DNA of 64,000 nt, taken from sequence record DRR378314_778; one strand, given 5' to 3'. The position numbers and the translations under genes were made by a program. This document shows positions 675 to 44,522 of this stretch, piece by piece. Numbering within the stretch: position 1 is the stretch's first letter; each line of letters begins with the position of its first letter. Under the pieces are notes generated by a model. It was not told the DNA's origin, made no database searches, and saw nothing but the letters and a program-made list of their open reading frames with translations.

Positions 675-1541
675 TCAATAGGACTCCACCCGGTTCTCAA
701 GGATGCCAATTCCTTCGATTTCGATTTTGACAGTATCTCCGGGCACTAAGTATTTGGGAGGCTTGAACCCGATACCGACGCCCGCGGGTGTCCCGGTGGC
801 AATCACGTCACCGGCTTGTAAGGTGATGCCATTTGACGCTGCAGCAATGATGTCTGGTACATCGAATATCAAAAGCCCGGTATTTGAATCCTGCCTCAGT
901 TCTTCATTGATCCAGCATTTTACATTGGTGTTTGCCAGGTCAATCTCATCAGCAGTGACAGCCCATGGTCCCATTGGGCAAAATGTATCCTGTGATTTAC
1001 CGATGAGCCACTGACTATGGACGCCTTGCAGATCCCGAGCTGTTACGTCGTTGACAACGGTATAACCCCACACATGATCCATGGCGTCTTCTTTAGAGAT
1101 GTTGCGGCCAGATTTTCCGATGATCACCATAAGTTCGGCCTCATAATCGACCGCTGTACTTACGGATGCATCGATCTTGATTGCATCACCCGTCGGGATG
1201 ACGGTTTCTGGAAGCTTTGAGAAGATAATAGGTGCTTTTGGGACCGTACCTGCGGCGGCGGAACTATCAAATCCAGAGTCGGAAAACTCCTTCGCATGTT
1301 CATGATAGTTTTTCCCAACACAAAAGATGTTGCGTGAAGGACGGGGAACAGGGGCGAGTAATTTTACGGAACTTAAATCATATACGTCGCCGGTCTTTTC
1401 AGGTTGATGACCTATTAAGCTAACAACTCCTTGCGGATCTTGGCTTCCGCCAGGCCATTTTAGTTTTTCGATGCTGTTGTCAGCGATATTGACGGATCCG
1501 AGGTAACGGTGATTGTTATGTTCAAATGTTGCGTATTTCAT
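675..1541 (-). CDS. Fumarylacetoacetate hydrolase family protein
   Basis: IFCVGKNYHEH, DYEAEL, NDVTARD, GKSQDTFCPMGP and GDVIATGTPAGVG motifs. Confidence 0.93.
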   Translation of the reverse strand: MKYATFEHNNHRYLGSVNIADNSIEKLKWPGGSQDPQGVVSLIGHQPEKTGDVYDLSSVKLLAPVPRPSRNIFCVGKNYHEHAKEFSDSGFDSSAAAGTVPKAPIIFSKLPETVIPTGDAIKIDASVSTAVDYEAELMVIIGKSGRNISKEDAMDHVWGYTVVNDVTARDLQGVHSQWLIGKSQDTFCPMGPWAVTADEIDLANTNVKCWINEELRQDSNTGLLIFDVPDIIAAASNGITLQAGDVIATGTPAGVGIGFKPPKYLVPGDTVKIEIEGIGILENRVESY

Positions 1542-1546
1542 AAGCC

Positions 1547-3004
1547 TTAACCCTGGTGTTCTGGAATCAAAATGGTTGACCCTGTGGTTTGTCTGGATTC
1601 GATTGCCTGATGCGCCAATACTGCATCCTGCAAGGCAAATTGGTTGCTGATATCAATAGACACATGGCCCTGACGAATTGCTGAAAATAGCCGTTCTGCA
1701 GACGTCAATATTTTTTGGCGCGTATCTGTGTAGTGACTGTAATTCGGCCGGGACAGAGTTACTGACTTAGCGGCGAGCGAGCCGATGTCCCAAGGACCAA
1801 TATCACCCGATGCCTGCCCGAAACTGACAATGTGCCCACAGGGCTTTAAAGCCGCTATAGAATGTGGAAAACTATCTTTTCCAACAGCATCAAAAATATA
1901 ATCGACGCCAGCCCCGTTTGTAATTTTGAGAACCTGTTCTTCAAGGCTCTCTGGCCCGGGAAGAACGACGTGATGAGCCCCAGCCTCACGGGCTTGACGC
2001 CCTTTAACCTCGGTTGACGTTGCGCCGATTACCGTTGCACCCAGATGCCGAGCCCATTGGCACAGGATTTTCCCCACACCACCTGCAGGGGCATATACCA
2101 AGACAGTGTCCTGATGTTGAACCCGGGTGACCTTATGAAGCAAAAAATCAGCAGTAATGCCTTTTAAAAGGCCGGCTGCGGCAATCTTGTCATTAATATC
2201 ACTCGGAAGTGGTATTACCAGATCCGCGTTCATGGTTCGCATGGATGTATAGGCACCTGTGGGCGGGCAGGCATAGCCCACACGTTGTCCCAGCTTTAGA
2301 TGAGAAACTCCAGATCCCACATCGGCGACAACGCCTGCTGCTTCCATTCCCAATATCCCGGGTGGTTTGACAAGATCAAAATATCCTGTGCGGCAATATA
2401 TATCGATGAAATTGACACCAATTGCAGTTTGTTTGATCCGGACTTCGTTGCGTTCCGGATCGGGTGCCGAGGTCGTCTCATAGGACAGATTGCCGGTGTC
2501 GCCATATTGTTTCAGAACAACCGACTTACACTCTATCCCCGATTTCGCGGAAAATGACCGTTGACTGCTACTTTTTAACCGCTGCATTACAGCACTAAAT
2601 CCGGCGTCATAAACACCTTCAGCGACCAAATCAGCAAGTTCCTTCTCGCGTCCGGAAGGTGTGTTGAACTGAGACTTCCAGGACCAGAAGGTTTTATTGC
2701 CATCTGTTACAGGCTTTAAGTTAATTTCGGCCACATAATTCAGGAGTGGGACTTCACTTTCGACGATAGCGTATTTGAGCTGAAATTTATGATCAGACAG
2801 GGACAGCAGTTGCTCTCGCAGTCGTTCACCACTTTCAAGCACGAAATTCCGAATGACGCCGACCTGGCTTGTCCGCCGGTTATTATCGATCACGCTTTTT
2901 CGAACAGCCGGGTGCCAACCGTCATGACCATTAAAGTCACGGAGAATTTCCCATACTTTCGAAATGGGTGCATCGATAATTGTGCTGCGCGATACAGAAA
3001 CCAT
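1547..3004 (-). CDS. SRPBCC domain fused to NADPH:quinone oxidoreductase (MDR/Qor family)
   Basis: N-terminal ~145 aa closely resembles the adjacent SRPBCC gene; C-terminal IGVNFIDIYCRTG, LGMEAAGVV, APAGGVG and SFGQASG are Qor motifs. Confidence 0.88.
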   Translation of the reverse strand: MVSVSRSTIIDAPISKVWEILRDFNGHDGWHPAVRKSVIDNNRRTSQVGVIRNFVLESGERLREQLLSLSDHKFQLKYAIVESEVPLLNYVAEINLKPVTDGNKTFWSWKSQFNTPSGREKELADLVAEGVYDAGFSAVMQRLKSSSQRSFSAKSGIECKSVVLKQYGDTGNLSYETTSAPDPERNEVRIKQTAIGVNFIDIYCRTGYFDLVKPPGILGMEAAGVVADVGSGVSHLKLGQRVGYACPPTGAYTSMRTMNADLVIPLPSDINDKIAAAGLLKGITADFLLHKVTRVQHQDTVLVYAPAGGVGKILCQWARHLGATVIGATSTEVKGRQAREAGAHHVVLPGPESLEEQVLKITNGAGVDYIFDAVGKDSFPHSIAALKPCGHIVSFGQASGDIGPWDIGSLAAKSVTLSRPNYSHYTDTRQKILTSAERLFSAIRQGHVSIDISNQFALQDAVLAHQAIESRQTTGSTILIPEHQG

Positions 3005-3005
3005 T

Positions 3006-3443
3006 TTATCCCCCGAGATGAGTCCTCAGACTATTCAGGGCCGCCTGAAAAACGTTGTTGCCAATATGCTCTATGAGTTCGGTTTCTCTTGCTGGCGCGC
3101 ATTCAAACTCAGCTGACCATTCTGCAAAAGTCTGATTTCCATCCGTTACTGGTATCAGGCGAAAAGTCGCCACGTAGTTTTCAACGCCCATAGGGCTTTC
3201 CAATATGGAGTAACTGAAGCTGAATTCGTAATCGGATAGGGCGAGTAGTTGCTCCCGAATATATCCGCCATCTTCAAGTTTGAAGGCACGGATACATCCG
3301 ATCTGATCTGAAGGAAGGCTGCTTTCGATGCGGCTTTGCGTGACGAATGGCGTCCACACAGGAAGTGCATTAAAGTCGCGGACAGTAGACCAGACTCTAT
3401 CCACAGGTGCAGGAATTACAGAAGAAGTATAGACGTGTACCAT
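3006..3443 (-). CDS. SRPBCC (polyketide cyclase 2 / MxaD-like) protein
   Basis: IPAPVDRVWSTVRDFNALPVW...IREQLLAL...YSILESP helix-grip pattern, 145 aa. Confidence 0.88.
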   Translation of the reverse strand: MVHVYTSSVIPAPVDRVWSTVRDFNALPVWTPFVTQSRIESSLPSDQIGCIRAFKLEDGGYIREQLLALSDYEFSFSYSILESPMGVENYVATFRLIPVTDGNQTFAEWSAEFECAPARETELIEHIGNNVFQAALNSLRTHLGG

Positions 3444-5465
3444 TTAGCTATCTTTCTTCTTTGGGGGTAAATCTTTTGACAGGCTTTGGACATCTTTTGC
3501 AGATCTGAAAATATCACCCATCTTGGCGACACCAGCATCTTGAATGCCGATTTCTTTCATCATTTCATCAATAAGAGGGGCTTGAGCCCGATACCGAAGG
3601 GCGCTTTCAATAACCTCATCTGTTGGTGATCTCGATCCTTCGCCTGACCCTCCTGTAAGTCCATCAACATGTAGGATTTTGATGCCTTCGATATTCTCCA
3701 TTGGTTTGACGCTTTCGCGAACGATACCCTCCAGTCGATCGATCAATTTCGAGCGGAGTTTCACAGCGCGGGCGTCTTCACTCAATACATTTTCAGCTTC
3801 ATTTAGTAGACGCTGAGCTTCTGCGGCAACGGCGGCAGAAACTTTTTCTGCTTCTGCTGAAATCCGGGCTGTATCTGCGTCTTTTTCGGCAACCAGTTTA
3901 TCAATTGCGGCAATCCTTTGCGCAATAGCCGTTTCACGAGTTGTGGCAACTTTTTCTTCAGCCTCAACCGCTGCCGCTCTTGCTGCTTCGCTTGAAACGC
4001 GGGTTTGTGCTTCCTCAGATTGCTTTTGAAGAACTGCAATTTGGCTATCGATATTGGCCAGTTCCACAGCATGTTCTCGTTCGATTTCAAGCCGTTTGAC
4101 ATCACGTTCTTTGATGATGCGGGCTTCATCCAGTCCACGTTCCGAAGCAATGCGCGCTCTTTCAATTTCCTCTTGAGCGGAGATCTCATTCTCCTCGACG
4201 ACTTGGCGCATGGATATTTGTTCGGCCCGCAATTTTCGATCCCGATCTATGCGTGCTTTGTCTAGCGCCTGTTCGACGGAAATTCTGGCGACTTCTATAT
4301 TTTTGTTCGCTTCAACTTTGGATGTTTCGAGGGATTTATTACGTTGAATGTCTCGGTTGTCCGCTTCTTCTTCAGCGGTAATTTTGGCCAATCGAAGCTG
4401 CTGCTCAGAAACTACTTTTGCACGCTCCACATCTTCAATTGCTGCGATTTCAGCGGTTTCGATATCGTGTTTTTGACGAATTTGTTTGTCTCGGATCAGA
4501 GATTCTTGTTCAATTTTTGCCTGTTCTATCTCAATTTGGGCTTTTATTTCAGCAGCCTGCAATGTCTTTTGTCGTGATATCTCATGTGAGCGGGTTTCTT
4601 GTTCTGCCTGAATCCGGGTTTTTTCCGTTTCGGCTTCTTTTTCTGTACGTTCTTTTTCAACATCAGCGCGTTGCCGGGCTTTTAACGATTCAATTTCTTT
4701 CTCTTGGGCAAGGCGTGCATTTTCACTTTCCTGTTCCAGTAGGAGAGTTTCTTTTTCCGCTTTCAGGTTACGGCTTCGGATGGCAACCATAGACGTTTGT
4801 TCAATGTCGTTTCTGTGTTTCCGCCGATCTTCGATTGTTTCGATCAATCGTGTCAGGCCTTCTGCGTCAAACTGGTTGGCCGGATTGAAATGTTCCAGAT
4901 CAGTCTGATCAAGATCAGTAATGGCAACGGATTCCAGCTCCAGACCGTTTTGCTCTAGAGCTTGGGCAGCCTGTTTCGTGACTTTAGAAACATATTCATT
5001 GCGTTTTTCATGCATGTCATCAAGTGACATCTCAGCAGCGACAGATCGCAGCGCGCCAACAAATTTACCTGAGAGTAATTCAGCTAGTTGCTCATTTTCC
5101 ATCGTACGACGACCGAGAGTTGATGCAGCGGCAGCAACGGCTTCTTTCTCCTGTATGACCCGTACGAAGAATTCAGCTTCTATATCTACGCGCATCCGAT
5201 CTTTTGTGATCACGGCATGTTCTTTTTCTCGAAGGACAGGAATTCGCAAGACATTCAGGTTAACGGAGGTTACCTCGTGTATGATCGGCAATACCAACGC
5301 ACCACCATTAATGATAACGCTTTCGCCGCCAAACCCTGTGCGTACAAAGGCAACTTCCTTCGTCGAGCGATAATAAAGCCAATTCAGTAAATAGACGACA
5401 ATTGCGATCACAATGATTGCCGCAATGCCCCACAAAATAACGCTTCCAATAATTCCGGTGCTCAT
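3444..5465 (-). CDS. Flotillin / SPFH (band 7) family membrane protein, YqiK-like
   Basis: N-terminal TM helix, AFVRTGFGG and ITKDRMRVDIEAEFFVRV SPFH segment, long E/A/K/Q coiled coil, C-terminal ESVKPMENIEGIKI...SALRYRAQAPLID. Confidence 0.9.
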   Translation of the reverse strand: MSTGIIGSVILWGIAAIIVIAIVVYLLNWLYYRSTKEVAFVRTGFGGESVIINGGALVLPIIHEVTSVNLNVLRIPVLREKEHAVITKDRMRVDIEAEFFVRVIQEKEAVAAAASTLGRRTMENEQLAELLSGKFVGALRSVAAEMSLDDMHEKRNEYVSKVTKQAAQALEQNGLELESVAITDLDQTDLEHFNPANQFDAEGLTRLIETIEDRRKHRNDIEQTSMVAIRSRNLKAEKETLLLEQESENARLAQEKEIESLKARQRADVEKERTEKEAETEKTRIQAEQETRSHEISRQKTLQAAEIKAQIEIEQAKIEQESLIRDKQIRQKHDIETAEIAAIEDVERAKVVSEQQLRLAKITAEEEADNRDIQRNKSLETSKVEANKNIEVARISVEQALDKARIDRDRKLRAEQISMRQVVEENEISAQEEIERARIASERGLDEARIIKERDVKRLEIEREHAVELANIDSQIAVLQKQSEEAQTRVSSEAARAAAVEAEEKVATTRETAIAQRIAAIDKLVAEKDADTARISAEAEKVSAAVAAEAQRLLNEAENVLSEDARAVKLRSKLIDRLEGIVRESVKPMENIEGIKILHVDGLTGGSGEGSRSPTDEVIESALRYRAQAPLIDEMMKEIGIQDAGVAKMGDIFRSAKDVQSLSKDLPPKKKDS

Positions 5466-5478
5466 CGTGAAGCTCCCT

Positions 5479-6312
5479 TTAGCCGGTTTGAATTGCCTTA
5501 AAGGCTTTGGTTTGATTAGTCAGTGCAACTTCTGTTGGCAAACGCTCCATCGAAGACGCGCCATAGAAGCCGTGGCAATTTTCTGTATTTTTTAGGACGA
5601 ATTCCGCATCTGGCGGCATTGACACCGGTCCGCCGTGGACAAGCACGATTACATCAGGATTTACTTTTAGTGCGGCTTCGGACCATGCATTCACCAGGCC
5701 AGGTACATCTTCAAGTTTTAAGGCGGTTTCGGCCCCAATACTTCCACCTGTTGTCAGACCTAAATGACAGACAATGATATCTGCACCTGCTTTGGCCATG
5801 GCGGCTGCTTCGTCTTCATTAAAAACGTATGGGGTCGTCAGCATGTCTTTTTCGTGGGCCATACTGATAATGTCAATTTCCTGACTGTATGACATGCCAG
5901 TTTCTTCGAGATTTGCCCGAAAATTTCCATCGATGAGGCCGACCGTTGGAAAGTTTTGGATGCCAGCGAAGCCCACGGCCTTTACCTGATCAAGGTAATG
6001 GTCAAAGTTACAAAATGGGTCTGTCCCATTTACACCCGCGAGAACAGGTGTTCTTTGAACGACCGGAAGCACTTCTTTGGCCATATCCATAACAACTTCG
6101 TTGGCGTTTCCATACGCCATCAATCCGGAAAGAGAGCCGCGACCCGCCATGCGGTACCGTCCCGAGTTATAAATGACGATCAGGTCAATGCCGCCCTCTT
6201 CTTCACATTTTGCGGACAGGCCTGTTCCAGCACCACCCCCAATAATGGGAATTTTCTTTTGTTTCATTTCCTGAAACTTAGCGACAAGATCTTTACGTTC
6301 AAAACGCGGCAT
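5479..6312 (-). CDS. TIM-barrel signal transduction / phosphoenolpyruvate hydrolase family protein
   Basis: [43 protein letters not shown] and [12 protein letters not shown] motifs. Confidence 0.9.
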
Positions 6313-8563
6313 GTTCTTTACTCCTCTTATGCGGACTTATCTCTTCTAGGGCGGTCACTACAGCCGCTGCAAATGCTGGGTCATTAATATGATATGGCGT
6401 TGAAATCAGCCGACGTGTTGGTGTCTCTTTAAAAGTCTGTTTTACGGAGTTAAAAAGCGCCTCACTGGCAGCAGTATCATGAAATGGTTGACCCGGCGCA
6501 TCAAGCGCAGACACGCCCCCTTCAGGCAGCAAAAATCGCACAGGTCCGGGCATTTCATTCAGGCGGCTGGCGATCCACTTACCCATCTGTCGATTTTCAT
6601 CAGCCGTGGTTCGCATCAAGGTGACTTGGGCATTATGTTCTACAAACACTCTGTTGGAGAATTTCTCCGGAACGGTGTTTCTAGGGCCAAAATTCACCAT
6701 ATCCAGCGCGCCCACGGACCCAACATAGGGAATTCCGGTTCTAATAAAGGCGCCAAAGCGATCTTCTGTGGATGGGAAAACACCGCCGACAAACATGTCG
6801 CAGACTTCTGTTGTCGTCAGATCAATGGCAGCTTCTAGCATTCCGCTATCAGCCAGCTTTTCCATGGACCTTCCTCCCACACCGGTTGCATGGAAAACCA
6901 GACATTCATACTCACTTTCAAGTTGAGCTGAAACCTGTTGAATAGCGGTTGTTGTGACACCAAACATTGTCATGCCCAGGCTAGGCTTGTCATCGTTGGC
7001 GGAAATTTCGCGGCGAATACTCTGTGCCTGTTTTGCCATTCCCGCGATCGCGTGGGCCCCATTTGCAAGGACCTGTTTTGAAATTTGGTTGAGGCCCTGT
7101 ACATCCGTCACAGGGTTCATCATTATGATGTCCGTTGGACCGACGTAGCTTCCCACTTCACCGGAGGCAACGGTTGAAATCATGAATTTCGGTAGACCAA
7201 TCGGTAAAGCTTGCATCGCCGGTGTCGCGAGTGCAGTCCCGCCAGAGCCGCCGGCTGAGATTATTCCCCCGATACCATTTTGCCGGACAATCCAGTTTAC
7301 GAAGGCCTCTGACATGGCTGAAACGGATGACCCTCTATCGCCGTTGAATACAGCGTTACTTCCGCCTTTGTGATACGACGCGATGATCTGAGGGGTTACA
7401 TCCGCAGACGATACCTTTCCTGAAGTGGAAAGGTCGATGGTTCGGGTTTTAATGCCGCAGGCGCGAATACAATTTCGGATATAGAGTAATTCATTCTGTT
7501 TCGTATCGAAGGTGCCGACAACATAAACTTCATCACCGAACAGATTATCGGCACTGGTTGGTTTTTCTTTGAACAGAGGTTCTGGCTTCTGATCAAAAGG
7601 TCGAGATATATTATCCTGACTAGACGATACGGCCGGGCTGCTTGTTTCTTTCCAGTAAGAAGAGGACCAACGGGTTGGAGGGATATAAACTTTCTGTCGG
7701 GTATTCTCGTTTTTGGGTCTGTCGAGCTCGGTTTCAAGCGGCTCTTTTTTATCAGGATGTTGGACTTGAGCGGGCTGTTCTTCGATATCCGTCACTGAAG
7801 TTGGAATTTCGATCACTTCGTCATGAGAGTGTCGGCCAACCCCGAGCAAACTTTCCTGCAAACTCCGGTCTGCAGCCAATTGCTTGGATGGCATTATACG
7901 ATTGATCCGGCCGTTCACCATGATGGCAACATCTTTGGAAATTGACGTTGCAACAGAAATATTTTGTTCAATCAGCAACACAGAGACGTCACTGGACGTT
8001 GCTAGATCTGCTAACAGGTTTTCAACTTGATCCACAATTACTGGAGCAAGCCCTTCAGTCGGTTCATCCAGAACCAACAGCTGGGGATCTTGCAATAAGG
8101 CTCGTGAGATTGCCAGCATTTGCTGCTCACCTCCGGACAATTGATTGCCGCCGTTATTGCGCCTTTCAAACAGTCTGGGAAACGTGTCGTAAATCCTGTC
8201 GATTGACCAAGAGCCAGAATTTGTTTCAAATAGTTTGAGATGCTCATGAACCGACAACGACGGCCATAACCTACGCCCTTGCGGTGTGTATCCTATGCCC
8301 ATACTCGCAATTTTGTAGGCGGGCTGATTGGATATTTCTTCGCCTAAAAATCGAATGGAACCACTTCTTGCAGGTAGCAACCCCATGATTGTGTTGCAGA
8401 GCGTGGTTTTCCCCATTCCATTGCGACCAACAACAGAATGTACGCCAGTATCCAGGGTAAAATTAACGCCTTGCAGGGCGTGAGACTGACCGTAATAAAC
8501 ATGGAGATCCTGAACTTGAAGAGTCGCCGAGGGGTTCAGGTTTTTTCTTTGTTTTTTAAGCAT
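6299..8563 (-). CDS. LivF-type ABC ATPase fused to a Tm-1-like (UPF0261) ATP-binding domain
   Basis: [23 protein letters not shown], then a polar linker, then [38 protein letters not shown] and GALDMVNFG. Start taken at ATG 8563, which overlaps the upstream stop. Confidence 0.88.
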
Positions 8564-9341
8564 CGCCACGTCCCAGATAAAGCTCTTGCACCTCGGGATC
8601 GTTTTCAATTTCTTCAGGTGTACCCTCTTTAAATATGCGACCGTTATGCATCATCGTAACGCTTTGTGAGACACGCAACGCAACGTCCATATCATGTTCA
8701 ATGATGACAAATCCGATATGAGCTGGCAGGTTCGTAAGAATTTCAATTAATTCAGTCCGCTCAGTTGGTGATAATCCGGCAGCGGGCTCGTCAAGTAGGA
8801 GAAGTCTTGGAGCTCCGGCGAGCGCAAGTGCAATCTCAAGCTGGCGCTGCTGCCCATAACTAAGAGCAGCGACTTCGATATCCCTTACAGTTTCCAAATG
8901 AACCGCATGCAGCAAAGCTTCCGCTGTTTCCATTGAGCTGTCATCAGCTTTGGGTCGCCGAAGCGAAAATCGCCCCTGGCTAACGCCGCGGCACGCCAGG
9001 AAAATATTGTCGATGACTGTTAAGCCATTAAATAATAAAGAAATCTGATAGGTCCGGCGTAATCCGCGCCGGATGCGTTCGTGACTGGGAAACTCTGTAA
9101 CGTCTTCACCAAACAAACGAACACGTCCGGTTGTTGGAGGAAAATCTCCAGTGATGGCGTTAAACAAAGTTGTTTTCCCAGCCCCGTTTGATCCCAGAAC
9201 CGCTCGCCGTTCTCCCGCTTTCACAGTGAGGTTGATATCGGCCAGCGCCACAAGCGCGCCAAAATGGCGGCTCACGGCTTCTAACTCGAGTGCATATAAA
9301 CCTGCACTTTGCAGACGGGAAAGAGCGTCGGTTCCAGACAT
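8556..9341 (-). CDS. Branched-chain-type ABC transporter ATP-binding protein (LivG-like)
   Basis: GSNGAGKTT, LSYGQQR, LLLLDEPAAGL, IEHDM. Confidence 0.93.
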   Translation of the reverse strand: MSGTDALSRLQSAGLYALELEAVSRHFGALVALADINLTVKAGERRAVLGSNGAGKTTLFNAITGDFPPTTGRVRLFGEDVTEFPSHERIRRGLRRTYQISLLFNGLTVIDNIFLACRGVSQGRFSLRRPKADDSSMETAEALLHAVHLETVRDIEVAALSYGQQRQLEIALALAGAPRLLLLDEPAAGLSPTERTELIEILTNLPAHIGFVIIEHDMDVALRVSQSVTMMHNGRIFKEGTPEEIENDPEVQELYLGRGDA

Positions 9342-9356
9342 ATTAACGTATATCCT

Positions 9357-10604
9357 TTACTCGCAGCTGGGGTTTTCACGCCCAACTTGACCATATTCGA
9401 GGAACTCTTCGTATGAGAGACCTAAAGTTTGGCTGACCTGAGGAGTAACTTTGATGGTCTTGTTGATAAGCTTGCCATCAGGTCCTTCTGCAACTTCTGT
9501 AAGGAACACATCTGCGATCGCGTTGCGACGTTCGTCCAGTTTTACCATGCCTGTCGGTGTTTCGAACTCAAGTGAAGACAGAGCTGATCTATATTTCGCG
9601 GATCCATCAGATAGATCACCATCGATTTTATTGAGACCAAGCAAGGCCGCTTTGGTGTTTACATAGTAAGCATGACTAAAGAGGGATGGTGAAGGGAATC
9701 CGTCAGGGAACATTTCCTTATATTTAGAAACATATTCTTTCCAACGTGGATCATCCCATGTATCTGAAATTGGACCACCAGAAGGGGTTCCGATGATGAA
9801 ACTTCTTGTCCGCCCTTTAGAGCCCAATACAGACTGATCAACAGTAATAGAGCCACCAATAAGAGGTAGATCACCGCCAGCCTGTTCATACTGGGTCAAA
9901 AAGTTCACTGCATCTGCGCCGCCCAAAGCAACGAAGATCGCATCAACATCATCTGGCAAAGCAGCAATCACTGATGAATAGTCTTTGTTTCCGATTGGAA
10001 CCCAGAACCGGGCGTCGTTTGGTGATTTTCCGCCTAGGCGGCAGAAGGGCTCAAGGAAGCCGAAGACTTGTGTGTATGGGAAAGAGTAATCTTCTGCCAA
10101 CACAGCGACTTTGCGATAGCCTTTATTGTTATACGCATATTCTCCGAGCCCAGCCATCCATTGTGCCCCTTCCGTATTAAAACGGAAAAAGTTTTCAGAC
10201 GGATTGCGCAAAGTTGTATCCTGTGCCGCTGAAGAACCGTTCAGGAATGTTACAGTTGGTTGTCCCTTTGCGTAGTCCTTTACAGCAATGCCTTCTGAGC
10301 CGGAAAGCGGACCAATCAAAATTTGTACGCCGTCCTGTTCAACCAGCTTCCGTGTTGCGCGGATTGCGCTATCCGGGCTGGCATCGGATGAACCCGTAAT
10401 CAGTTCAATTTTTTTGCCGCCGGCCGTATACCCAAATTCTTCCAGGGCTATTTTTACACCGCGAATACTATCTTCACCCAAGGCCGCAAAAGCACCTTCA
10501 AGTGTAGCTAATGCTCCCATCTTAATTGTATCCTGCGCCACGGCAGGGAACGCAATCGTTGCTATTGCAGCGGTCACGAGCATCTTTTTAATCACTCCCA
10601 ACAT
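9357..10604 (-). CDS. ABC transporter substrate-binding protein (LivJ/K-type)
   Basis: Signal peptide ending AVAQD, IGPLSGS, FFRF; lies between permeases and ATPases. Confidence 0.9.
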   Translation of the reverse strand: MLGVIKKMLVTAAIATIAFPAVAQDTIKMGALATLEGAFAALGEDSIRGVKIALEEFGYTAGGKKIELITGSSDASPDSAIRATRKLVEQDGVQILIGPLSGSEGIAVKDYAKGQPTVTFLNGSSAAQDTTLRNPSENFFRFNTEGAQWMAGLGEYAYNNKGYRKVAVLAEDYSFPYTQVFGFLEPFCRLGGKSPNDARFWVPIGNKDYSSVIAALPDDVDAIFVALGGADAVNFLTQYEQAGGDLPLIGGSITVDQSVLGSKGRTRSFIIGTPSGGPISDTWDDPRWKEYVSKYKEMFPDGFPSPSLFSHAYYVNTKAALLGLNKIDGDLSDGSAKYRSALSSLEFETPTGMVKLDERRNAIADVFLTEVAEGPDGKLINKTIKVTPQVSQTLGLSYEEFLEYGQVGRENPSCE

Positions 10605-11690
10605 TCACTCCTCCTGTAAAGTTTGATTATTTGATGAACCTTTTGAATTTGGATCATCATTATTGCCACGGCTTAATCGTTGCCGTGAATTTCCGGCAAG
10701 CCGGATCCTTTCCTGGACTCGCGCCCACAGGCCGAGCATGCCATCTGGGGAAAAGAGTACGATCAGGAGAAATGCCATCCCAATGACGGTGTTAAATCTC
10801 TCCCGATCGATCAGGTCGATTGCGAAATTCTCAAGCAGGACAAAAGCAAGGGCGCCGATGAAAGGGCCGATCGGGTGCTTCATGCCGCCGATGACTGCAA
10901 TGATGAGGATATCAATAGCAACGTCTACACCAATAGAGCCTGGTGAAATACGGCCGTTAAACCACACCAACAGGACGCCCGCAGTCCCGGCAATAATACC
11001 GGAGAAGAAATAAGCCGTTATGCGATGGAGCGTCACATTGAAGCCCAACGCACTCATTCTCCTGGGGTTATCTCTAATCGCTTGCAAGCTTAACCCAAAG
11101 ACCGATTGAGAGGCGTAAACAACCAACCCATAATAACCAATGGCGATCACCAATGTCAGATAATAGAAGGGAAGGGCGTCCCGCCAATTGATACCAAAAA
11201 CGATGGGCGGATGAATGCCTGCGAACCCAGTGAAACCATTGAAAATTACGTAATTCTGGCGAACGAAATAGAAGAATGCGACTGCAATCGCCAGCGTAAT
11301 CATGATGGTATAAATACCTTCGGTTCTTACGGAAATGGCGCCAATAAAAGCACTAAAGACAGAAGCTCCCAGAATTGAGGTCGCGACCGTCAGCCACCAT
11401 GGCCATCCAAGTCCCATCACGCCAGCGCTATTATCGCCCAGGATCGCCATTAAGTAACCGCCGAACCCAGCCACTGTCAGCTGTGCTAAACTTACCATGC
11501 CTCCATAGCCGGCAAGCATCATCATAGAGAGGGCAATGAGACCCAGGATCAGTGAATAGGCGCCGATCTGGAAAACAAAGAAATCACTAGCAAAGGATGG
11601 ATACGCCAGCAAGACAACCACCACCAGTATTTTTGTCGGGTGAATGTCTGATAGATTAAAGCTTCCTGAGAAAAGGCTAGGGGAGGACAT
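10605..11690 (-). CDS. Branched-chain-type ABC permease (LivM-like)
   Basis: GYGGMVSLAQ, YTIMITLA, FGLSLQAIRDN; multiple TM helices. Confidence 0.92.
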   Translation of the reverse strand: MSSPSLFSGSFNLSDIHPTKILVVVVLLAYPSFASDFFVFQIGAYSLILGLIALSMMMLAGYGGMVSLAQLTVAGFGGYLMAILGDNSAGVMGLGWPWWLTVATSILGASVFSAFIGAISVRTEGIYTIMITLAIAVAFFYFVRQNYVIFNGFTGFAGIHPPIVFGINWRDALPFYYLTLVIAIGYYGLVVYASQSVFGLSLQAIRDNPRRMSALGFNVTLHRITAYFFSGIIAGTAGVLLVWFNGRISPGSIGVDVAIDILIIAVIGGMKHPIGPFIGALAFVLLENFAIDLIDRERFNTVIGMAFLLIVLFSPDGMLGLWARVQERIRLAGNSRQRLSRGNNDDPNSKGSSNNQTLQEE

Positions 11691-11693
11691 CTG

Positions 11694-12704
11694 TTATCGC
11701 CCTCCCATGATGCCTTGCGGACGAACCGCGAGAACCACGACCATAATCAGAAAGGTTAGCACCACGCCATAGGTCGGAAAATATGCCAGGCCAAACTGTT
11801 CTGCCAAACCGATCAGCAATGCGCCGACTGCGGCCCCTGAAACGGACCCCAGACCACCAACAATCACCACGACCAGAGACGCAAGAAGATATCGGATGTC
11901 TTCTCCGGGTGCGATCGACAAGGCGGTTCCGCCAATGACCCCTGCAAAACCTGCTAAGCCAGCGCCTAGCGCAAAGACCAGAACAAAAACGAGCTGAACA
12001 TTGATGCCAGACGCTGTCAGCATATCCCGATCATCAACACCGGCGCGGATCATCATTCCCATTTTTGTTCTGTTCAGGAATAGCCACAGAGCAATGCCCA
12101 CAGCGATGGCGATAAACAGAACAGCGAGCCTATACATTGGATATTTTATCAGGACTTCTGTTCCCGACGCTCTTATGACTGAGATGATCGGCAGCTTGAC
12201 AGCGCCATATAACCATTCGGGTGGTTCAAATTGGTAGGTCGTTCCGGTCCAAACAGCGAGCATGAGATCAGCGGCAATAATTGATATGCCGATCGTAACC
12301 ATTGTTTGTCGAAGATCGTCGCCTTCCATTCTCCGGAATATGAGCAATTGCAGGAGTATGCCGGTGATCGCGATGACAATAAATGCGGCGGCGAGGCCGA
12401 TGAACCAGTTGCCAGTGAACTCCGCAACCTCATAACCGATGTATCCCCCCAATAGATACATAGATCCATGTGCGAGATTGACATTTCGCATCAGTCCAAA
12501 AATAAGTGTGAAGCCGCTTGCCACCAAAAAATACAGGCCACCCAAAGTCAGACCATTGAGAAGCGTATTGACGAATGTTTTTTTACGGCCAAAAGTCTCA
12601 ATCAACCAGTCAGGCCAAACAGCAAAGATGAGCCAAGCCAAAATCGCTGCTGCTAGAAGTATCAGAATTGCCCAAAATGTATGCCGTTCGACAAACCGTC
12701 TCAT
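11694..12704 (-). CDS. Branched-chain-type ABC permease (LivH-like)
   Basis: ASGFTLIFGLMRNVNLAHG, VVIVGGLGS, RPQGIMG. Confidence 0.92.
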   Translation of the reverse strand: MRRFVERHTFWAILILLAAAILAWLIFAVWPDWLIETFGRKKTFVNTLLNGLTLGGLYFLVASGFTLIFGLMRNVNLAHGSMYLLGGYIGYEVAEFTGNWFIGLAAAFIVIAITGILLQLLIFRRMEGDDLRQTMVTIGISIIAADLMLAVWTGTTYQFEPPEWLYGAVKLPIISVIRASGTEVLIKYPMYRLAVLFIAIAVGIALWLFLNRTKMGMMIRAGVDDRDMLTASGINVQLVFVLVFALGAGLAGFAGVIGGTALSIAPGEDIRYLLASLVVVIVGGLGSVSGAAVGALLIGLAEQFGLAYFPTYGVVLTFLIMVVVLAVRPQGIMGGR

Positions 12705-12876
12705 GATGCATTACCTGCATTCACAAATACGGTGATAATTGCCGTGCAGCCGTCCTCAAGTTTGACCACGACTTGTTTCTCTCCCTGTGATTTCTAGAAT
12801 TTTGGTGAAAATTCCAGAAAAACAGCCGTTTTTCGGCTTGTTTTCACGTAATACGCATTTTTAGTATCTTTAAAGA

Positions 12877-12893
12877 CTGCATTGCTCACGCCT
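12877..12893 (-). promoter_or_regulatory. Possible sigma54 (-24/-12) promoter for the ABC/Tm-1 operon
   Basis: Minus strand reads AGGCGTGAGCAATGCAG: GG-N10-GC spacing, imperfect match to TGGCACG-N4-TTGC. Confidence 0.35.
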
Positions 12894-12906
12894 TATCAAG
12901 CAATAG

Positions 12907-12942
12907 GTAATTTTGACAAGTTGAGTAATTTTGGGTAATTTT
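12907..12942 (+). repeat. Three direct copies of GTAATTTT, candidate regulator sites
   Basis: GTAATTTT at 12907, 12925 and 12935 in the divergent intergenic region. Confidence 0.45.
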
Positions 12943-13015
12943 AAATGTAAAAATACGAAACTTGGAGGCGTCATAATGCAATGATATTTTGATTGCTCTC
13001 GCGTCCGCAGCAATA

Positions 13016-13726
13016 ATGAGTAAGAATGTGCCGCCATTAGAATATTTGAGAATGAGTTTAAAGACTCGAAAGAATCGGTTGTCCGATGAACCAAAATTTC
13101 CCACATCAATACTGACGGTCGCGGCTCGGTTTCAACATGAAAACATGCCTGAAGAGATATCATTGCTGCTACCGACAAACCCTGGTCCAGCAAAATTGAT
13201 TTCTCACTTAGTAGATCTGAAAAAGGATCTTAGTGACAATATGATTGGGATATTTCTTGCCGCGCCAACTTTGAACTTTGAACGGAGCGCTGCTCAAATC
13301 TCGCAATTGGGTATTAATTGGGTTTGTAACTTTCCCAGCATTGCGCAACAGGATGCTACCTTTTCTCAACAGCTCTCAGATGTGGATCTTTTTCATGAAC
13401 GAGAATATACCAACCTCGGCTATTTTAAACGCGCAGGTGTGAATATTGCAGCGGTTGTTTCAAGTGAAGCAACAACAATTGCGGCGTTGAAGGTTAAGCC
13501 CGATGCCCTCATTGTTCTGCCCACAGTCGTAGAGTATGCGGCGGGATTTCCATCCCCGAGGCAGCGCTCCAATCTTGCAGAAACGGTGCGCGAAATCACC
13601 GATGGAAGTGATTGGGCAGGGACGATTTTTGGTTTGGCCGACAACGGTGAAGAACAACATGAGAGGCTATGGCCGCCCTTCGTAGATGGAATTGTTTGTC
13701 GGCCCAGACGCATTAAAGCGCTTTAG
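13016..13726 (+). CDS. Divergent TIM-barrel signal transduction family paralog
   Basis: WVCNFPSIAQQDATFSQQLSDVDLFHERE aligns by eye to [29 protein letters not shown] of 5479-6312. Start uncertain (12989 or 13016). Confidence 0.7.
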   Translation: MSKNVPPLEYLRMSLKTRKNRLSDEPKFPTSILTVAARFQHENMPEEISLLLPTNPGPAKLISHLVDLKKDLSDNMIGIFLAAPTLNFERSAAQISQLGINWVCNFPSIAQQDATFSQQLSDVDLFHEREYTNLGYFKRAGVNIAAVVSSEATTIAALKVKPDALIVLPTVVEYAAGFPSPRQRSNLAETVREITDGSDWAGTIFGLADNGEEQHERLWPPFVDGIVCRPRRIKAL

Positions 13727-15477
13727 GCGTTTAAGCCGTATTTTTTAAGCTTGTTATAAAGGGTTTTTCTGGAAATCCCCAAAGCCTCTGCAGTACGAGA
13801 TCTATTATAGCCATGGCGCCAAAGGTAATCCAGGATCCGGGTTTTTTCAGATTTATCCGCATCCCCAGGACTGACTTCCTGCGATTTATAGAGATCTAGG
13901 TTAATGTCTTCAGGTTGGATTTTCCGCTTTACTGCTATCTCAGCAAGAGAGCCTATTACGGATTTAAGTTCAGACTCATTTCCTGGCCAGATGTGTTCTT
14001 TTATTTTCTGCAACGCAGCCGATGAAAAATTTTGCTGCGTAATTTTCGATCCGAAAGAGCGCTGCGTAAATTCTTCAATAATTAAAAATATATCCTCTAT
14101 CCGTTCTCTAAGCGGTGGCATCCTGACGATCCAGCCTGAAAGGAAATCTGCGAGTTCCTGTTCAAGCCCAATCGCCAACAAATCCTCTTTCTTGATGTTG
14201 TTCGCTAAGGGGGCTTCGCAGGCGAGTATGACCTTGGGGGCGACTGACAAGGATTTGCGGTATCCGGTGGCCCGGAAAAATCCGTCACGTAACGCTTTTG
14301 CTAGTCGGCGCTGGATGGCCGGGGTTAATTTTTCCGGTGAATATATGACCAACAGGTCAACAGTTTCGTCAGCTAAGACGGGTGCGCGTTGACGGTTACC
14401 TTCCCGAAATCCGAACAATATTGTTCGTGCCCGCGTGGGGAAGTCTTCACCAGCAACATCATATTGCACAATATTTGGTTTTCTTGAGAGGTTATTGGAA
14501 TTCGAGAGAGCCTCTAATACGGGTGCTGGATGCAGCCCCCTTTCCGCAAGCAACAAGATGGGATGGTCAAACTTTGTGATCGACTTCAGTCTTTCGAGGA
14601 ACGGTATCAAATTCTTGGATTTTCCTGCAAACCTGTAATGTGCTGACCATTTAAGAAGGCTGCGCGTGTCATCATCCATCTCGACGCTGCGGGCACTGGC
14701 ATGCCTAAATCCATTAATGAGGTCCGCAACTGAAACCTCCACTGGCATTCGCTCAATGGTGGATCCTCCGATATAGCCATCTATAGGGACGAGACTAATC
14801 ACCTTAGCCAGGTCGTCAGGCGTGCTAATAGGCCCCCCCTCTAAGACGAACTTAATGTCAGGGTTGATGCGTTTTACGAGCCGACTAACCTCTCGTGCCA
14901 TGGCGGCGACTTCTTCTAGAGACATATGACTTTGATGCCCGACTGCGCCGCCTGCATTCCAGCCTAAATTTAAACAGACGATATCTAATCCTACATCCGC
15001 CGCCATTCTGGCTTGAGTACGATTTGCGCAATAAAAGATGGTCGATAGACCTTTGTCTTGAACCGCTTTTAGAAGCTCGACTTCTTTTTCGATGCCTCGT
15101 CCAGATCGGGACAGGATTTGCCGGAAAGGTTTGGTGTAATGCATGCAGCTTGGAAAATTTGCGGCACCCGCAAATCCCGCTTGAGCCACACGTTCCGCTA
15201 TGATTTCTGGATCAGCCTCTTGTTCCCATGCGCTAACACCCAGGTAAACGGGCTTTTTACACTGGATGAGAAGTTCTTCTTCTGCAAATTTTTCTGTTAG
15301 TTGAGGGGAGTCCAAGATTGGCAGCATAGACGCGATAGACGGAATTCCCATATTTCTAAGTCGACCGGCATTGATGGCCAATAGCATATCAGCGCCGCCT
15401 CTCTCTGCCGCCAATGCTGTGCTACCAGAACCAATGGCAGCCCCTATCAGAAAGTCACTCCCGCTGTCGTTTTTCAA
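13723..15477 (-). CDS. Regulator: TIM-barrel domain, degenerate sigma54-type AAA+ domain, Fis-type HTH
   Basis: N-terminal GAAIGSG, NAGRLR, NFPS, EGGP, GYIGGSTIERMP; central MPPLRERIEDI and WPGNESEL; C-terminal NRSRTAEALGISRKTLYNKLKKYG. Confidence 0.87.
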   Translation of the reverse strand: MKNDSGSDFLIGAAIGSGSTALAAERGGADMLLAINAGRLRNMGIPSIASMLPILDSPQLTEKFAEEELLIQCKKPVYLGVSAWEQEADPEIIAERVAQAGFAGAANFPSCMHYTKPFRQILSRSGRGIEKEVELLKAVQDKGLSTIFYCANRTQARMAADVGLDIVCLNLGWNAGGAVGHQSHMSLEEVAAMAREVSRLVKRINPDIKFVLEGGPISTPDDLAKVISLVPIDGYIGGSTIERMPVEVSVADLINGFRHASARSVEMDDDTRSLLKWSAHYRFAGKSKNLIPFLERLKSITKFDHPILLLAERGLHPAPVLEALSNSNNLSRKPNIVQYDVAGEDFPTRARTILFGFREGNRQRAPVLADETVDLLVIYSPEKLTPAIQRRLAKALRDGFFRATGYRKSLSVAPKVILACEAPLANNIKKEDLLAIGLEQELADFLSGWIVRMPPLRERIEDIFLIIEEFTQRSFGSKITQQNFSSAALQKIKEHIWPGNESELKSVIGSLAEIAVKRKIQPEDINLDLYKSQEVSPGDADKSEKTRILDYLWRHGYNRSRTAEALGISRKTLYNKLKKYGLNA

Positions 15478-25851: not shown

Positions 25852-28083
25852 GTGATGACTTTGTTTATCCACCATATCCGTCAGCTACTGCGTTGCATTC
25901 CCATCATATTGGGTTGTTTGTTGCTGGTTGTGGGTCAGGCAAAGGCCATCGAGACCATACAAAACATAATTCAGGAAACACCTGCCGCAGATTTCTATCC
26001 ATCTGCCGATCGGTGGGAAGCTGTTGCAGGCGGCCAGCCGATCTATGCAGCAAAACAGCAGGGAAAAACGGTTGGTTATGCATTTCTGAATACTGATTTC
26101 GTCGGCGCTGTTGGATATTCCGGCAAACCAATTGTTGTGCTTGTGGCCCTTGATACAAATGGCCAGATTGTGAATGCAAAGTTGGTTGATCATGCCGAAC
26201 CTATCGTTCTTTCCGGTATTCCCGAGCAGAAAATCGTTGATTTCATCGAAGGGTATCAGGGGACAGATATCCTGACAGTTGCGCGGGAAAAGGGAGGTGA
26301 ACCCCCACCTGTCGATATTGTCTCTGGTGCTACAGTGACCGTGATGGTTATCGATGACAGTATTAAGCGGGCCTCCGTTCGCGTGGCAAAGATCCTGGGT
26401 CTGGCCGGCTTGACTGTTGATGATCCATCGGCCCGTATCGAGCGAAGTCTTATTCTAAAAGACGAAGAGATTTATGATTGGGATACGCTTGTTGGGAACG
26501 GATCTGTTCGTAGACTGCATCTGAATTTAGGCGATATCAACAAGGGGTTTGAAGCACAGGGGAATGCCAAGGCCATTGCAAAACCTGAAAAAGGCAATCC
26601 TGAAGAGACTTATATCGATCTTTATGTCGCATCTTTGGCGGTCCCGGAAATTGCGCGCAGTTTACTGGGAAAATATGAATATCGAAATTATGAAAAAAGA
26701 ATACAAGACGGTCAAAACGCCTTTCTGGTTATGGGGCTGGGGCAATATTCTTTTCGCGGTTCCGGATATGTGCGGGGAGGAATTTTTGACCGGATTCAGG
26801 TTGTTCAGGATGGTGAAACCATCCGGTTTAAAGACCGGTTTTATAAGAATTTAGGGCGTGTTGAGGCAGAAAATTCTCCTCGTTTTAAAGAGGTCGCTCT
26901 TTTTTATACCCCACCGGATACCGTCTTCGAGCCAGCGGATCCCTGGCAGTTACAGTTGCTGGTTCAGCGGGCGATCGGGGCGCTGGAGAAAGTCTTCATC
27001 GCTTACGATATCTCCTACCAGCTTCCGGACGCTTATGTGAAAGTGAATACGCCGGCTGCGGCTCCCCAATCCGCCGTTTCGACACGAACAGAGGAGGAGA
27101 TAGCGGCCTCCAATGCGCTTTGGCAGCGAATTTGGATGCAAAAGTTACCTCAAATTGGGATCCTGATCGGCGCCATTACGCTCCTCACCCTTGTGTTTTT
27201 TGTTCAGAACCAAATCGTTCGAAGAACCATATTGACGGATCGGTTACGAATTGCCTTTCTACTCTTTACGCTCTTTTGGATTGGTTTTTATGCTCAGGCC
27301 CAGCTGTCTGTCGTGAATGTTCTGGTATTTGCCAATTCCTTGCTGACAGATTTCCAATGGCAATTTTTCCTGATGGAACCCTTGATTTTCATTCTGTGGT
27401 GTTCCGTTGCGGTTTCTTTGCTTTTCTGGGGACGCGGCGCGTTCTGTGGGTGGCTATGCCCTTTTGGCGCGCTGCAGGAGTTACTGAATAAACTCGCCCG
27501 CTTTGTTGGGATCAAACAGATAACCGTGCCCTGGTGGCTGCATGAACGGCTTTGGCCAATTAAATATATCCTCTTTTTAGCACTCCTGGGTGTTTCTGTT
27601 TATTCATTACATCTTGCAGAAACCCTGTCAGAGATTGAGCCATTCCGGACATCCATTGTCTTAAGATTCATGCGGGGCTGGCCTTATTTGCTGTTTGTCT
27701 TTTCTTTGCTGGCCGCCGGTTTGTTCATTGAAAGATTTTACTGCCGCTATCTGTGTCCGCTTGGGGCGGCGCTTGCCATCCCCGGTAAGCTTGCCATGTT
27801 TAATTGGCTGAAACGATACCGCAATTGCGGTGATCCATGCCAGAAATGTGCGCAGGAATGCATGGTCCAGGCAATCGATCCGCAAGGCAACATTAATCCC
27901 AATGAATGTCTCTACTGCTTAAATTGTCAGCAGCTTTATTACGACGAAGATGAATGTCCTGTTGTCATTCACGCCCTTGCCAAAGCGCGTAAATCTGACC
28001 CGAAAGCAAACGCAACTGTCGCAGATAAAGACTCCCAATACCGCAGGCCTCGGCGTCTTAACCAGTCGCGGCCTTATGAGTGA
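25852..28083 (+). CDS. nosR: NosR flavo-iron-sulfur membrane protein
   Basis: GYSGKPI, DIVSGAT flavinylation motif, [19 protein letters not shown]-terminal ferredoxin Cys clusters. Confidence 0.96.
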
Positions 28084-28121
28084 AAACTTTTTATGTCTTG
28101 TTTCTTATTAGGAGAGAGAAA

Positions 28122-30023: not shown

Positions 30024-30024
30024 G

Positions 30025-31293: not shown

Positions 31294-31303
31294 AGGTAGA
31301 GAA

Positions 31304-32245
31304 ATGAAAATGTCTATCAAATCAGCAATATCAGCTCTCGGAATTTCAAAGAATTTTGGTGACCTTAAAGCATTGCAAGATGTATCACTAACCTTGAGCA
31401 AGGGGGAATGCTTAGCATTGGTTGGCCATAATGGGGCAGGAAAAAGCACGCTTATTAAAATTCTATTGGGTTTGATCGCGCCAACGCACGGTATGGTCCA
31501 TGTCATGGGGACCGACGTCCAAACACGCAGATTTAAAAAATGCCGGCAGCATATTGGGTTTTTACCAGAACAGATTCTTTTCCAGAAGAATATGACCGGA
31601 CGAGAAGTGCTTCTTTTCTATGCGAAGCTTAAAGGGGCACCTCTATCGCAAGTGAGTGACCTGTTTCGTAAATTTGAACTTGAAGCTGCCGCTGATTATC
31701 GGATTTCCACTTACTCGAAAGGTATGCGTCAAAAACTAGGGATAGCTCAAGCTTTGTTAGGGGAACCGGAGTTTCTGATTTTGGATGAACCGACTTCCGG
31801 GCTGGATCCTTTGGCGCGGCAAAAGATTTATCAGATCCTCGGCGAGGAAAAATTGAAAGGTACTTCCATCCTGATTTCCTCCCATGTGCTAACCGAAATT
31901 GACGACCGTGTTGATCGTGCGGTCATCCTCAATTCAGGGCGTATTGTCGGTGATGACACTCTGGCTGGCTTGACCCAACAGCTTGCCGTTCAGTCCCGAA
32001 TTGTGATCGAGGCGTCACCCGAGGCATGTGATCAGATTAAAACAGTTTTTGCCCACGATCTGGATGTTCAAAGAACAACACAAAGGCATTTGGTCATTCA
32101 CTGTGAACAAGCCCGGAAAATACCGATCTTAAACAGCATATATGCGCTTGGAATTCAGCTGAGCGATATTCGAATAACGGATCCAAATCTGGAGGAAATT
32201 TTCAGTGCTTATATGCACTTGAACAAGGGAGGATCTGATGAATAA
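31304..32245 (+). CDS. nosF: ABC ATPase NosF
   Basis: GHNGAGKST, YSKGMRQKLG, LDEPTSGLDP; position in nos operon. Confidence 0.93.
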   Translation: MKMSIKSAISALGISKNFGDLKALQDVSLTLSKGECLALVGHNGAGKSTLIKILLGLIAPTHGMVHVMGTDVQTRRFKKCRQHIGFLPEQILFQKNMTGREVLLFYAKLKGAPLSQVSDLFRKFELEAAADYRISTYSKGMRQKLGIAQALLGEPEFLILDEPTSGLDPLARQKIYQILGEEKLKGTSILISSHVLTEIDDRVDRAVILNSGRIVGDDTLAGLTQQLAVQSRIVIEASPEACDQIKTVFAHDLDVQRTTQRHLVIHCEQARKIPILNSIYALGIQLSDIRITDPNLEEIFSAYMHLNKGGSDE

Positions 32246-33598: not shown

Positions 33599-33612
33599 GA
33601 GGAGCCGATGGT

Positions 33613-43621: not shown

Positions 43622-43637
43622 CAGACGGAATTCCAAG

Positions 43638-44507: not shown

Positions 44508-44522
44508 GGAAGGAACAGGATT

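Follow-up and report, generated by a model that had tools for sequence, protein, structure and literature searches.

A LivF-type ABC importer ATPase fused to a UPF0261 (Tm-1-like) domain, with a conserved linker motif and a conserved TIM-barrel and flotillin neighbourhood

Introduction

Proteins of the UPF0261 family and triosephosphate isomerase (TIM) barrel proteins of the TBST family are an orphan pair with a wide distribution across bacteria, archaea, fungi and plants; the pair includes the tomato virus-resistance protein Tm-1, whose known role is the binding of a viral replicase. The first activity reported for the family dates from 2025, when MarK was described as a homodimer that phosphorylates phenolic compounds with ATP, forming ADP (PMC12624787); it is the only UPF0261 protein whose activity has been demonstrated. 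Here we describe a gene in a 64,000-nucleotide stretch of DNA from sequence record DRR378314_778 (hereafter the window, meaning the whole stretch analysed) in which a complete UPF0261 domain is joined, in one reading frame, to an ATP-binding cassette (ABC) ATPase of the LivF type.

MarK (Saro_1862 of Novosphingobium aromaticivorans; PDB 9MPY) is a free 406-residue homodimer with neither a TIM-barrel partner nor a transporter. In its description, K16, part of a conserved D-T-K, is at the ATP site; the N of G195 and H219 hold the phenolic oxygen, with H304 stacked on the ring; the pocket is lined by T196, F283 and I285, and H348 contacts the ketone. The paper also records that Tm-1 acts by binding another protein, the interface containing ATP (PMC12624787). 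In Tm-1 and the plant Tm-1-like proteins (3WRV-3WRY) the UPF0261 and TBST families are paired in a single chain. The genes of the two families occur together and evolve together in bacteria, with r = 0.77 across 333 genomes, according to a 2016 paper that mentions ABC or transporters 0 times (PMC5028733).

The LivF and UrtE subunits of HAAT importers ordinarily stop after the ABC module, at about 240 residues. Other ABC importers carry an accessory domain at the C-terminus of the nucleotide-binding subunit, as in MalK, MetN, ModC and OpuAA, and these regulatory domains are small (∼70–130 residues) and packed directly beneath the ATPase dimer. Coupling of a transporter to a substrate-modifying enzyme is familiar from group translocation by the phosphotransferase system, from PnuC/NadR trapping and from peptidase-containing ABC exporters, none of which is homologous to the fusion. 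To our knowledge, no binding-protein-dependent ABC importer that covalently bears a kinase-family domain has been described. No description of an ABC ATPase-UPF0261 fusion was found in the full-text literature, with most subscription journals lying outside the coverage, and the architecture is present in public databases under automatic names.

A single gene encodes an ABC ATPase and a UPF0261 domain

The fusion gene occupies 6299..8563 on the minus strand. The first-pass annotation of this DNA had its coordinates right but overlooked the strand; translated on the plus strand, 6299-8563 is riddled with stops. The longest open reading frame (ORF) on the minus strand is 8608..6299, with a TTG start at 8608. 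However, the product is taken to be 754 residues long, because the ATG at 8563 overlaps the stop codon of the LivG gene lying upstream (ATGCTTAA), and 40 orthologues align from this codon.

Pfam places ABC_tran at residues 30-169 (97 bits), UPF0261_N at 345-514 (203 bits) and UPF0261_C at 526-742 (299 bits). Both UPF0261 subdomains (PF06792 and PF23189) are complete, their scores comparing with a Pfam cut-off of 27, and the NCBIfam model of the whole UPF0261 protein (NF002673) gives 601.9 bits (cut-off 520) for residues 345-744. ORF, Pfam and NCBIfam thus agree with the original proposal that one frame holds an intact LivF ATPase, a linker of about 100 residues and a full UPF0261 domain.

The ABC ATPase module (residues 1-245; 7829..8563, minus strand) contains a Walker A motif GRNGMGKTT at 46-54, Q95, the signature LSGGEQQ at 142-148, Walker B at 162-171 and an 'EQN' switch at 199-201, and these motifs, the Q-loop and the 'EQN' switch included, show no variation in 41 of 41 aligned fusions. 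Beyond these invariant columns, the module is recognised by its match to PDB 1JI0 (162.7 bits) and by its likeness to a stand-alone LivF encoded at 46176-46892 in a second Liv-type operon of the window, to which it is 34% identical over 202 residues; all of the ABC motifs, including the 'EQN' switch, are shared. At 238 residues and in a gene of its own, this second protein bears out the expectation that LivF proteins are usually about 240 residues long and stand alone, whereas the fusion has about 510 residues more. The ABC part has its highest scores with UrtE and LivF but misses the curated equivalog cut-offs of both UrtE (TIGR03410; 216.2 versus 285.8) and LivF (NF008626; 138.7 versus 441), and judged by these profiles it is of the LivF/UrtE type, yet is neither a LivF nor a UrtE equivalog.

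A model of the fusion built with AlphaFold2 (AF2) on the 41-sequence alignment has a mean predicted local distance difference test (pLDDT) score of 83.7 and shows two confident domains. Its predicted template-modelling (pTM) score is 0.54, and therefore no fixed pose of one domain relative to the other is predicted.

Distribution of the fusion

The domain architecture is general among the closest relatives. In a full-length database search, the best 120 of 8000 scored candidates all carry PF00005, PF06792 and PF23189 (120/120), with lengths of 726-792 residues and identities of 63-70%, so that the search for ABC_tran with UPF0261 proposed in the first-pass annotation finds both domains in each of the best matches listed. 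The named sources among these include Sneathiella, Hwanghaeella, Pelagibius, Denitrobaculum, Kiloniellales and one gammaproteobacterial metagenome-assembled genome (MAG); the automatic product names are partly wrong, "ABC transporter permease" and "Tm-1-like ATP-binding domain-containing protein" being examples. A distant fused query (P0191), 37% identical in its UPF0261 part, likewise gave 120 fused proteins among the 120 matches listed, and all names given among these are of Pseudomonadota, including Hyphomicrobiales, Paracoccaceae, Shinella and Hoeflea. No fused form from outside Pseudomonadota was seen among the P0191 matches listed, most of which are nameless.

A scan of one genome per species yielded 19 related loci, in 18 of which the ABC and UPF0261 parts form a single ORF by ORF and BLAST annotation; L008 is truncated by the start of its contig, and L016 is a stand-alone UPF0261 and TIM pair. 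In all, we have 31 distinct fused loci from Alpha- and Gammaproteobacteria, each within one and the same syntenic block (L021 and L025, which duplicate L001 and L003, are left out of this count), and the arrangement is found in many marine and soil bacteria.

Within 401 alphaproteobacterial genomes sampled evenly around L005, 42 carry UPF0261, and frames of at least 689 residues occur at 17 places. Inspection of 16 of these 17 places together with 4 shorter ones identified 15 true fusions, all with the same gene order, which with the seed gives 16 verified fusions among the 42 UPF0261-bearing genomes. The corresponding gammaproteobacterial sample (401 genomes around L007) has 12 genomes with UPF0261 and two frames of fused size; the one verified fusion is the seed alone, and the second frame is that of G709. 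A 689-residue open frame at L035 was considered as a fusion on its suggestive length, but is not an ABC fusion.

The sole split copy found is L038 (G228, 10200-12700), in which the two halves are separate ORFs of the same operon. Read in three frames, its linker contains a frameshift, a stop and a short segment that is duplicated ('LELQQRL.GV.ASDD'), and a PNRWS motif (see below) remains on the UPF0261 half. Judged from these features, the split is a secondary disruption or a MAG error and not the ancestral state.

These data bear on the concern, raised in the first-pass annotation, that the loss of a stop codon or an assembly error had fused two separate genes in this record, and likewise on a frameshift. 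The same single frame is seen at 31 distinct loci, assembled independently, and in all 240 of 240 listed database relatives, leaving an artefact with a negligible probability. Among public read sets, a single metagenomic DNA run contains 5% of the sampled words, and no RNA set is listed as containing them. Nor do the relatives all encode the domains separately, as had also been feared, the only split copy being a secondary one broken within the linker. By the evidence of this distribution the fusion is real and under selection.

A conserved motif in the linker

The linker (residues 246-344; 7532..7828, minus strand) is rich in proline (12 of 99 residues) and is recognised by low model confidence and variable length. 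The AF2 pLDDT lies below 50 at residues 248-252, 254-291, 307-321 and 323-325, and in 157 full-length fusions the length ranges from 34 to 209 residues with a median of 103. Where it can be aligned, the linker is 35-46% identical between fusions; the corresponding figures are 61-80% in the ABC module and 55-72% in the UPF0261 domain. The longest linker (209 residues; L017:5890-8481) consists mostly of repeated 'GEAFDRTGRADERT'-like units and includes a masked X stretch.

Within this variable segment the 41-sequence alignment reveals a conserved motif, VYIPPTRWS (residues 292-300; 7664..7690, minus strand), with the consensus V-Y-x-P-P-T-R-W-S, in which R298 is invariant and P296 and W299 are present in at least 90% of the aligned sequences. 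The pattern P-x-[RK]-W is present in 152 of the 157 fusion linkers, whereas shuffled linkers have it in 86 of 3140 cases. Among the five fusion linkers that miss it, four have near variants (SPRW, YTRW, RTRW and PNRF), and only P0187, with its 34-residue linker, is without any. The PPTRWS-type motif is retained in the distant fusions P0132 and P0191, and in the shorter proteins P0125 and P0135 it stays on the UPF0261 side. AF2 draws short strands around the motif, at 291-294 and 303-306. A second linker motif, RPFDxKPEP(L/V)F (residues 321-331), is confined to closer relatives.

The UPF0261 domain retains ATP-site and phenol-oxygen residues of MarK

The closest solved relatives of the UPF0261 domain (residues 345-754; 6302..7531, minus strand) are tomato Tm-1 (3WRY; 318 bits) and MarK (9MPY; 204.5 bits over 346-743), the latter having the same two-subdomain fold. 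In the MarK alignment, D14-T15-K16 correspond to D353-T354-K355, G195 to G535, H219 to H558 and H304 to H643, and all of these residues are invariant in the 41-sequence alignment of fusions. The remaining pocket residues are replaced, T196 by V536, F283 by M622, I285 by N624 and H348 by L687, and the replacements agree with the Tm-1 sequence. The domain appears, from this comparison, to retain what a kinase of the UPF0261 family needs, albeit with a different pocket, and by the criterion of the MarK specificity residues it is not acetovanillone-like.

When the UPF0261 domain was searched against 1.84 billion representatives, 926 clusters were recovered at E ≤ 1e-30. Among the best 150 of these, by local phmmer, 131 are UPF0261 only, 12 are ABC + UPF0261, 6 are UPF0261 + TIM and 1 is TIM + UPF0261. 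Pfam adds a weak ABC match in P0124 and a UPF0261 + Cupin_5 form; the less usual architectures are seen in P0259, where a TIM barrel precedes UPF0261 (the order opposite to that of plant Tm-1), and in P0145 (UPF0261 + Cupin_5).

A quick IQ-TREE phylogeny was computed from 98 near-full-length UPF0261 domains, with fragments and multi-stretch rows excluded; many of its rows deviate from the average amino-acid composition. All eight ABC-fused rows fall in one 18-row clade (SH-like approximate likelihood-ratio test support 99) together with 10 rows scored as unfused, two of which have N-terminal extensions of ∼120 residues and may be truncated. A larger clade of 24 rows (support 100) encloses it and includes three UPF0261 + TIM fusions as well; there are no ABC-fused rows among the other 74 rows of the tree. 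The ABC-fusion label changes six times on the tree, of which well-supported branches force only two, so that the fusion may have arisen once or more than once.

The TIM-barrel partner

The gene that follows the fusion (5479..6312, minus strand) encodes a PEP_hydrolase-like (TBST) TIM barrel of 277 residues, identified by Pfam (PF09370, 429 bits) and by PDB 2P10 (401 bits). Its start overlaps the stop of the fusion gene by 14 nucleotides, and a TIM gene comes next after the fusion in 29 of 31 distinct loci. The two families found in Tm-1 are therefore paired at this locus as well, but where Tm-1 has UPF0261 and TIM in one chain, here the TIM barrel is encoded by a separate, translationally coupled gene and UPF0261 is fused at its N-terminal side to an ABC ATPase.

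We predicted a complex of fusion residues 340-754 with the TIM protein, using alignments of our own and three controls. The median score is 0.38 (runs at 0.49, 0.38 and 0.01), and the best of the three controls scores 0.00. In calibration, the mark applied to such scores is reached by 116 of 157 solved complexes and by 2 of 215 mismatches, although at scores of 0.60 or less it is reached by only 18 of the 157 solved complexes and by both of the passing mismatches. The runs share at least 78% of their contacts, with a partner pLDDT of 87 or more. In view of the prior evidence, the prediction lends mild, weak support to binding between UPF0261 and TIM. The suggestion in the first-pass annotation that the TIM-barrel partner is perhaps tethered as well is thus plausible, with weak support from the gene overlap, the 29 of 31 loci, the published co-evolution and the complex prediction (0.38 versus 0.00).

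The TIM gene is absent from two fused loci, L032 (G252) and L033 (G084), where the flotillin gene follows the fusion directly. Both genomes also carry a second, unfused UPF0261 copy elsewhere (L039 and L036).

The operon and its conserved neighbourhood

The genes of the syntenic block, 9-10 in number, run in the order LivH-LivM-substrate-binding protein-LivG-fusion-TIM barrel-flotillin-SRPBCC-SRPBCC/quinone reductase(-FAH hydrolase). On the importer side, all on the minus strand, are a LivH/UrtB-type permease (12704..11694) and a LivM/UrtC-type permease (11690..10605), each matching Pfam BPD_transp_2; a periplasmic substrate-binding protein of the Peripla_BP_6 family (9357..10604), identified by Pfam and with its best PDB match to 4ZPJ (144.8 bits); and a LivG/UrtD-type ABC ATPase (8556..9341; Pfam ABC_tran and BCA_ABC_TP_C, with NCBIfam), the second motor subunit, which is syntenic in all fused loci. 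The two permeases, the Peripla_BP_6 protein and LivG are features shared with HAAT importers. The NCBIfam scores of the permeases are closer to Urt than to Liv, and all are below cut-off. As had been noted before, the fusion is the sole LivF-type gene of this operon.

Directly downstream of the TIM gene is a flotillin gene (3444..5465, minus strand) whose 673-residue product has SPFH/Band 7 and Flot domains by Pfam. A flotillin gene comes next in 30 of the 31 distinct fused loci; the sole miss, L006, is at a contig edge, and the L032 copy is fragmented. In Paracoccaceae-type loci the flotillin is longer, at ∼976 residues compared with 673 in the window. At five unfused UPF0261 loci (L016, L035, L036, L037 and L039) there is no flotillin match and no block-type transporter adjoining the UPF0261 gene.

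Three further genes on the minus strand, assigned by Pfam and synteny, encode an SRPBCC protein (3443..3006), an SRPBCC + quinone-reductase-like protein (3004..1547) and an FAH-family hydrolase (1541..675). Against curated NCBIfam models the neighbouring genes all score below cut-off, the nearest being quinone reductase, HpaG-like and PcaD-like, and these names carry at most a faint aromatic or quinone flavour. Genes that vary beside the block include an iron-containing alcohol dehydrogenase, an amidohydrolase and an alpha/beta hydrolase, and in L010 molybdenum-hydroxylase subunits. There are no acvCDEF-type carboxylase genes in the window.

Regulators and further TIM-fold proteins

Upstream of the operon lies a regulator gene (13723..15477, minus strand) whose product combines an N-terminal TBST TIM-barrel sensor (PEP_hydrolase, 213 bits), a degenerate AAA+ core (AAA_lid_14) and HTH_8. 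Its sequence has no PF00158 match, no Walker A and no GAFTGA, and there is no -24/-12-like site ahead of the operon (12705-12988), such sites matching 43 times in the whole window where 41 matches are expected. By these features it is probably a sigma-54-independent, ATPase-dead activator. The regulator varies between loci: the TBST-sensor + AAA+ + HTH_8 form is present in the window and several relatives, a GntR/FCD regulator in L003 and an AraC regulator in L010.

Beside the regulator is a divergent, conserved ORF of 245 residues (12989..13726, plus strand), a remote TBST/TIM paralogue with a weak Pfam match (26.7 bits) that aligns to the partner family with an hhalign probability of 94.9% (E 4.7e-8). 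Its orthologues, at 35-48% identity, occupy the same position in nine distinct loci (L001-L006, L022, L023 and L027). With the sensor of the regulator, this paralogue and the partner itself, the locus therefore holds three members of the TIM-fold family.

Other features of the window

A complete nitrous-oxide reductase cluster (nosR, nosZ, nosD, nosF, nosY, nosL and apbE) is present at 25852-34620 on the plus strand, adjoined by a Crp/Fnr-type regulator and a cupredoxin gene. The second Liv-type operon, at 42473-46892, is followed by AMP-ligase and MaoC dehydratase genes, and directly upstream of it is a truncated insertion-sequence-type integrase (HTH_21 and partial rve; 41020-41598, plus strand).

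Discussion

A motor subunit of the LivF type bears, on a flexible tether of ∼100 residues, a complete UPF0261 domain that is probably an active, ATP-using enzyme, and by their sequences both modules keep their nucleotide-site residues. Since the fusion is the only LivF subunit of its operon, the UPF0261 domain has to lie on the cytoplasmic side of the importer, and in this respect the tethering put forward in the first-pass annotation stands. Both purposes that the annotation suggested for the tether, substrate channelling and feedback control of transport, are candidates. An ABC importer ATPase with an appended domain is of a kind already known; here the appendage is a kinase-family domain on a motif-bearing tether. 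Unlike the MalK and MetN type, it is an enzyme-type domain of 410 residues, its tether is long and predicted to be disordered, and it is carried by only one of two different ATPase subunits. What is newly seen here, from comparison of the sequences, is the near-universal PPTRWS linker motif, the retention of the MarK ATP and phenol-oxygen residues without the specificity residues, and the placement of the fusions in one clade. The linker motif, the conserved flotillin and SRPBCC neighbours and the 2025 proof of a UPF0261 kinase had all escaped the first-pass annotation.

We favour, tentatively and at close to an even chance, the reading that the tethered kinase-type enzyme and its TIM partner act on the imported compound at the membrane, by trapping or channelling. 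The UPF0261 domain would work as MarK does, as a small-molecule kinase converting ATP to ADP, and together with the TIM-barrel partner would alter the imported compound on its exit from the permease. This modification would trap the compound and hand it to the enzymes of the downstream genes (SRPBCC, quinone reductase and hydrolase). The assembly may occupy a membrane patch organised by flotillin, and the PPTRWS motif would serve as a docking peptide for another component.

Several observations weigh against such a role in modifying cargo. MarK acts without a TIM partner, and the Tm-1-type pair has no known reaction; moreover T196, F283, I285 and H348 of MarK are V, M, N and L in the fusion, and the chemistry may therefore differ. 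Two fused loci do without the TIM gene altogether, and given the split in L038 the covalent link may be dispensable in that genome. The pLDDT of the linker motif is barely raised in the AF2 model (about 52-55), and hence no docking site is identified. Finally, the TIM fold also serves as the sensor domain of the adjacent regulator, which fits signalling equally well.

This last point leads to the main rival, a regulatory module, in which UPF0261 with TIM would sense ATP or a cytoplasmic metabolite and either gate the importer, by trans-inhibition, or signal to transcription through the TBST domain of the regulator. The C-terminus of the ATPase subunit is the usual site of regulatory domains in ABC importers such as MalK, MetN, ModC and OpuAA, and the sequestering of MalT by MalK offers an analogy for the relay to a regulator; the N-terminal TBST sensor of the upstream regulator, the third TBST paralogue beside it and the action of Tm-1 through partner binding at an interface that contains ATP, as recorded in the MarK report (PMC12624787), all point the same way. 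A linker of about 100 residues with low confidence, variable length and no fixed pose against the ABC module is harder to square with this, as is the invariance of the catalytic-type residues in common with MarK. The TBST regulator is, furthermore, found in only some loci (L003 has GntR/FCD and L010 AraC), so that sequestration of a regulator cannot be a general mechanism, and we regard the regulatory explanation as somewhat unlikely. A plainer account is that UPF0261 and TIM run a step of a cytosolic pathway, the fusion being a convenience of co-expression that only sets a 1:1 dosage and a rough co-localisation, with no functional link to transport. Modules of UPF0261 and TIM (with or without SRPBCC) do exist without a transporter (L016, L035 and L037), the fused clade includes unfused members, and one copy, L038, is split; yet the fusion persists among widely diverged proteins, with as little as 37% identity in the UPF0261 part, the alphaproteobacterial sample has 16 fused genomes to one split, and a conserved motif in the tether would not be expected of a passive join. 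We therefore think this account unlikely.

Modification of the imported compound at the membrane, the reading we favour, also has a more ambitious form, an ABC counterpart of group translocation, in which PPTRWS would dock the kinase-type domain, the TIM barrel or both onto the transporter or the flotillin, and a membrane-scaffolded machine would phosphorylate cargo as it enters. This is speculative and, in our estimation, quite improbable. With distinct LivG and LivF subunits there is one tethered domain per transporter, and by analogy with the MarK dimer it is conceivable that the domain could pair transporters into clusters.

The fusion gives the UPF0261/TIM pair a defined place, at the exit from a binding-protein-dependent importer. 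The operon has a dedicated ligand-binding protein, and therefore the substrate can be found by ligand screening and the role of the Tm-1 family becomes directly testable. If cargo is indeed modified at the transporter, this would be an uptake-coupled modification of a sort not described for ABC importers, and the strictly conserved flotillin neighbour would provide a rare genetic entry point for learning what flotillins organise in bacteria.

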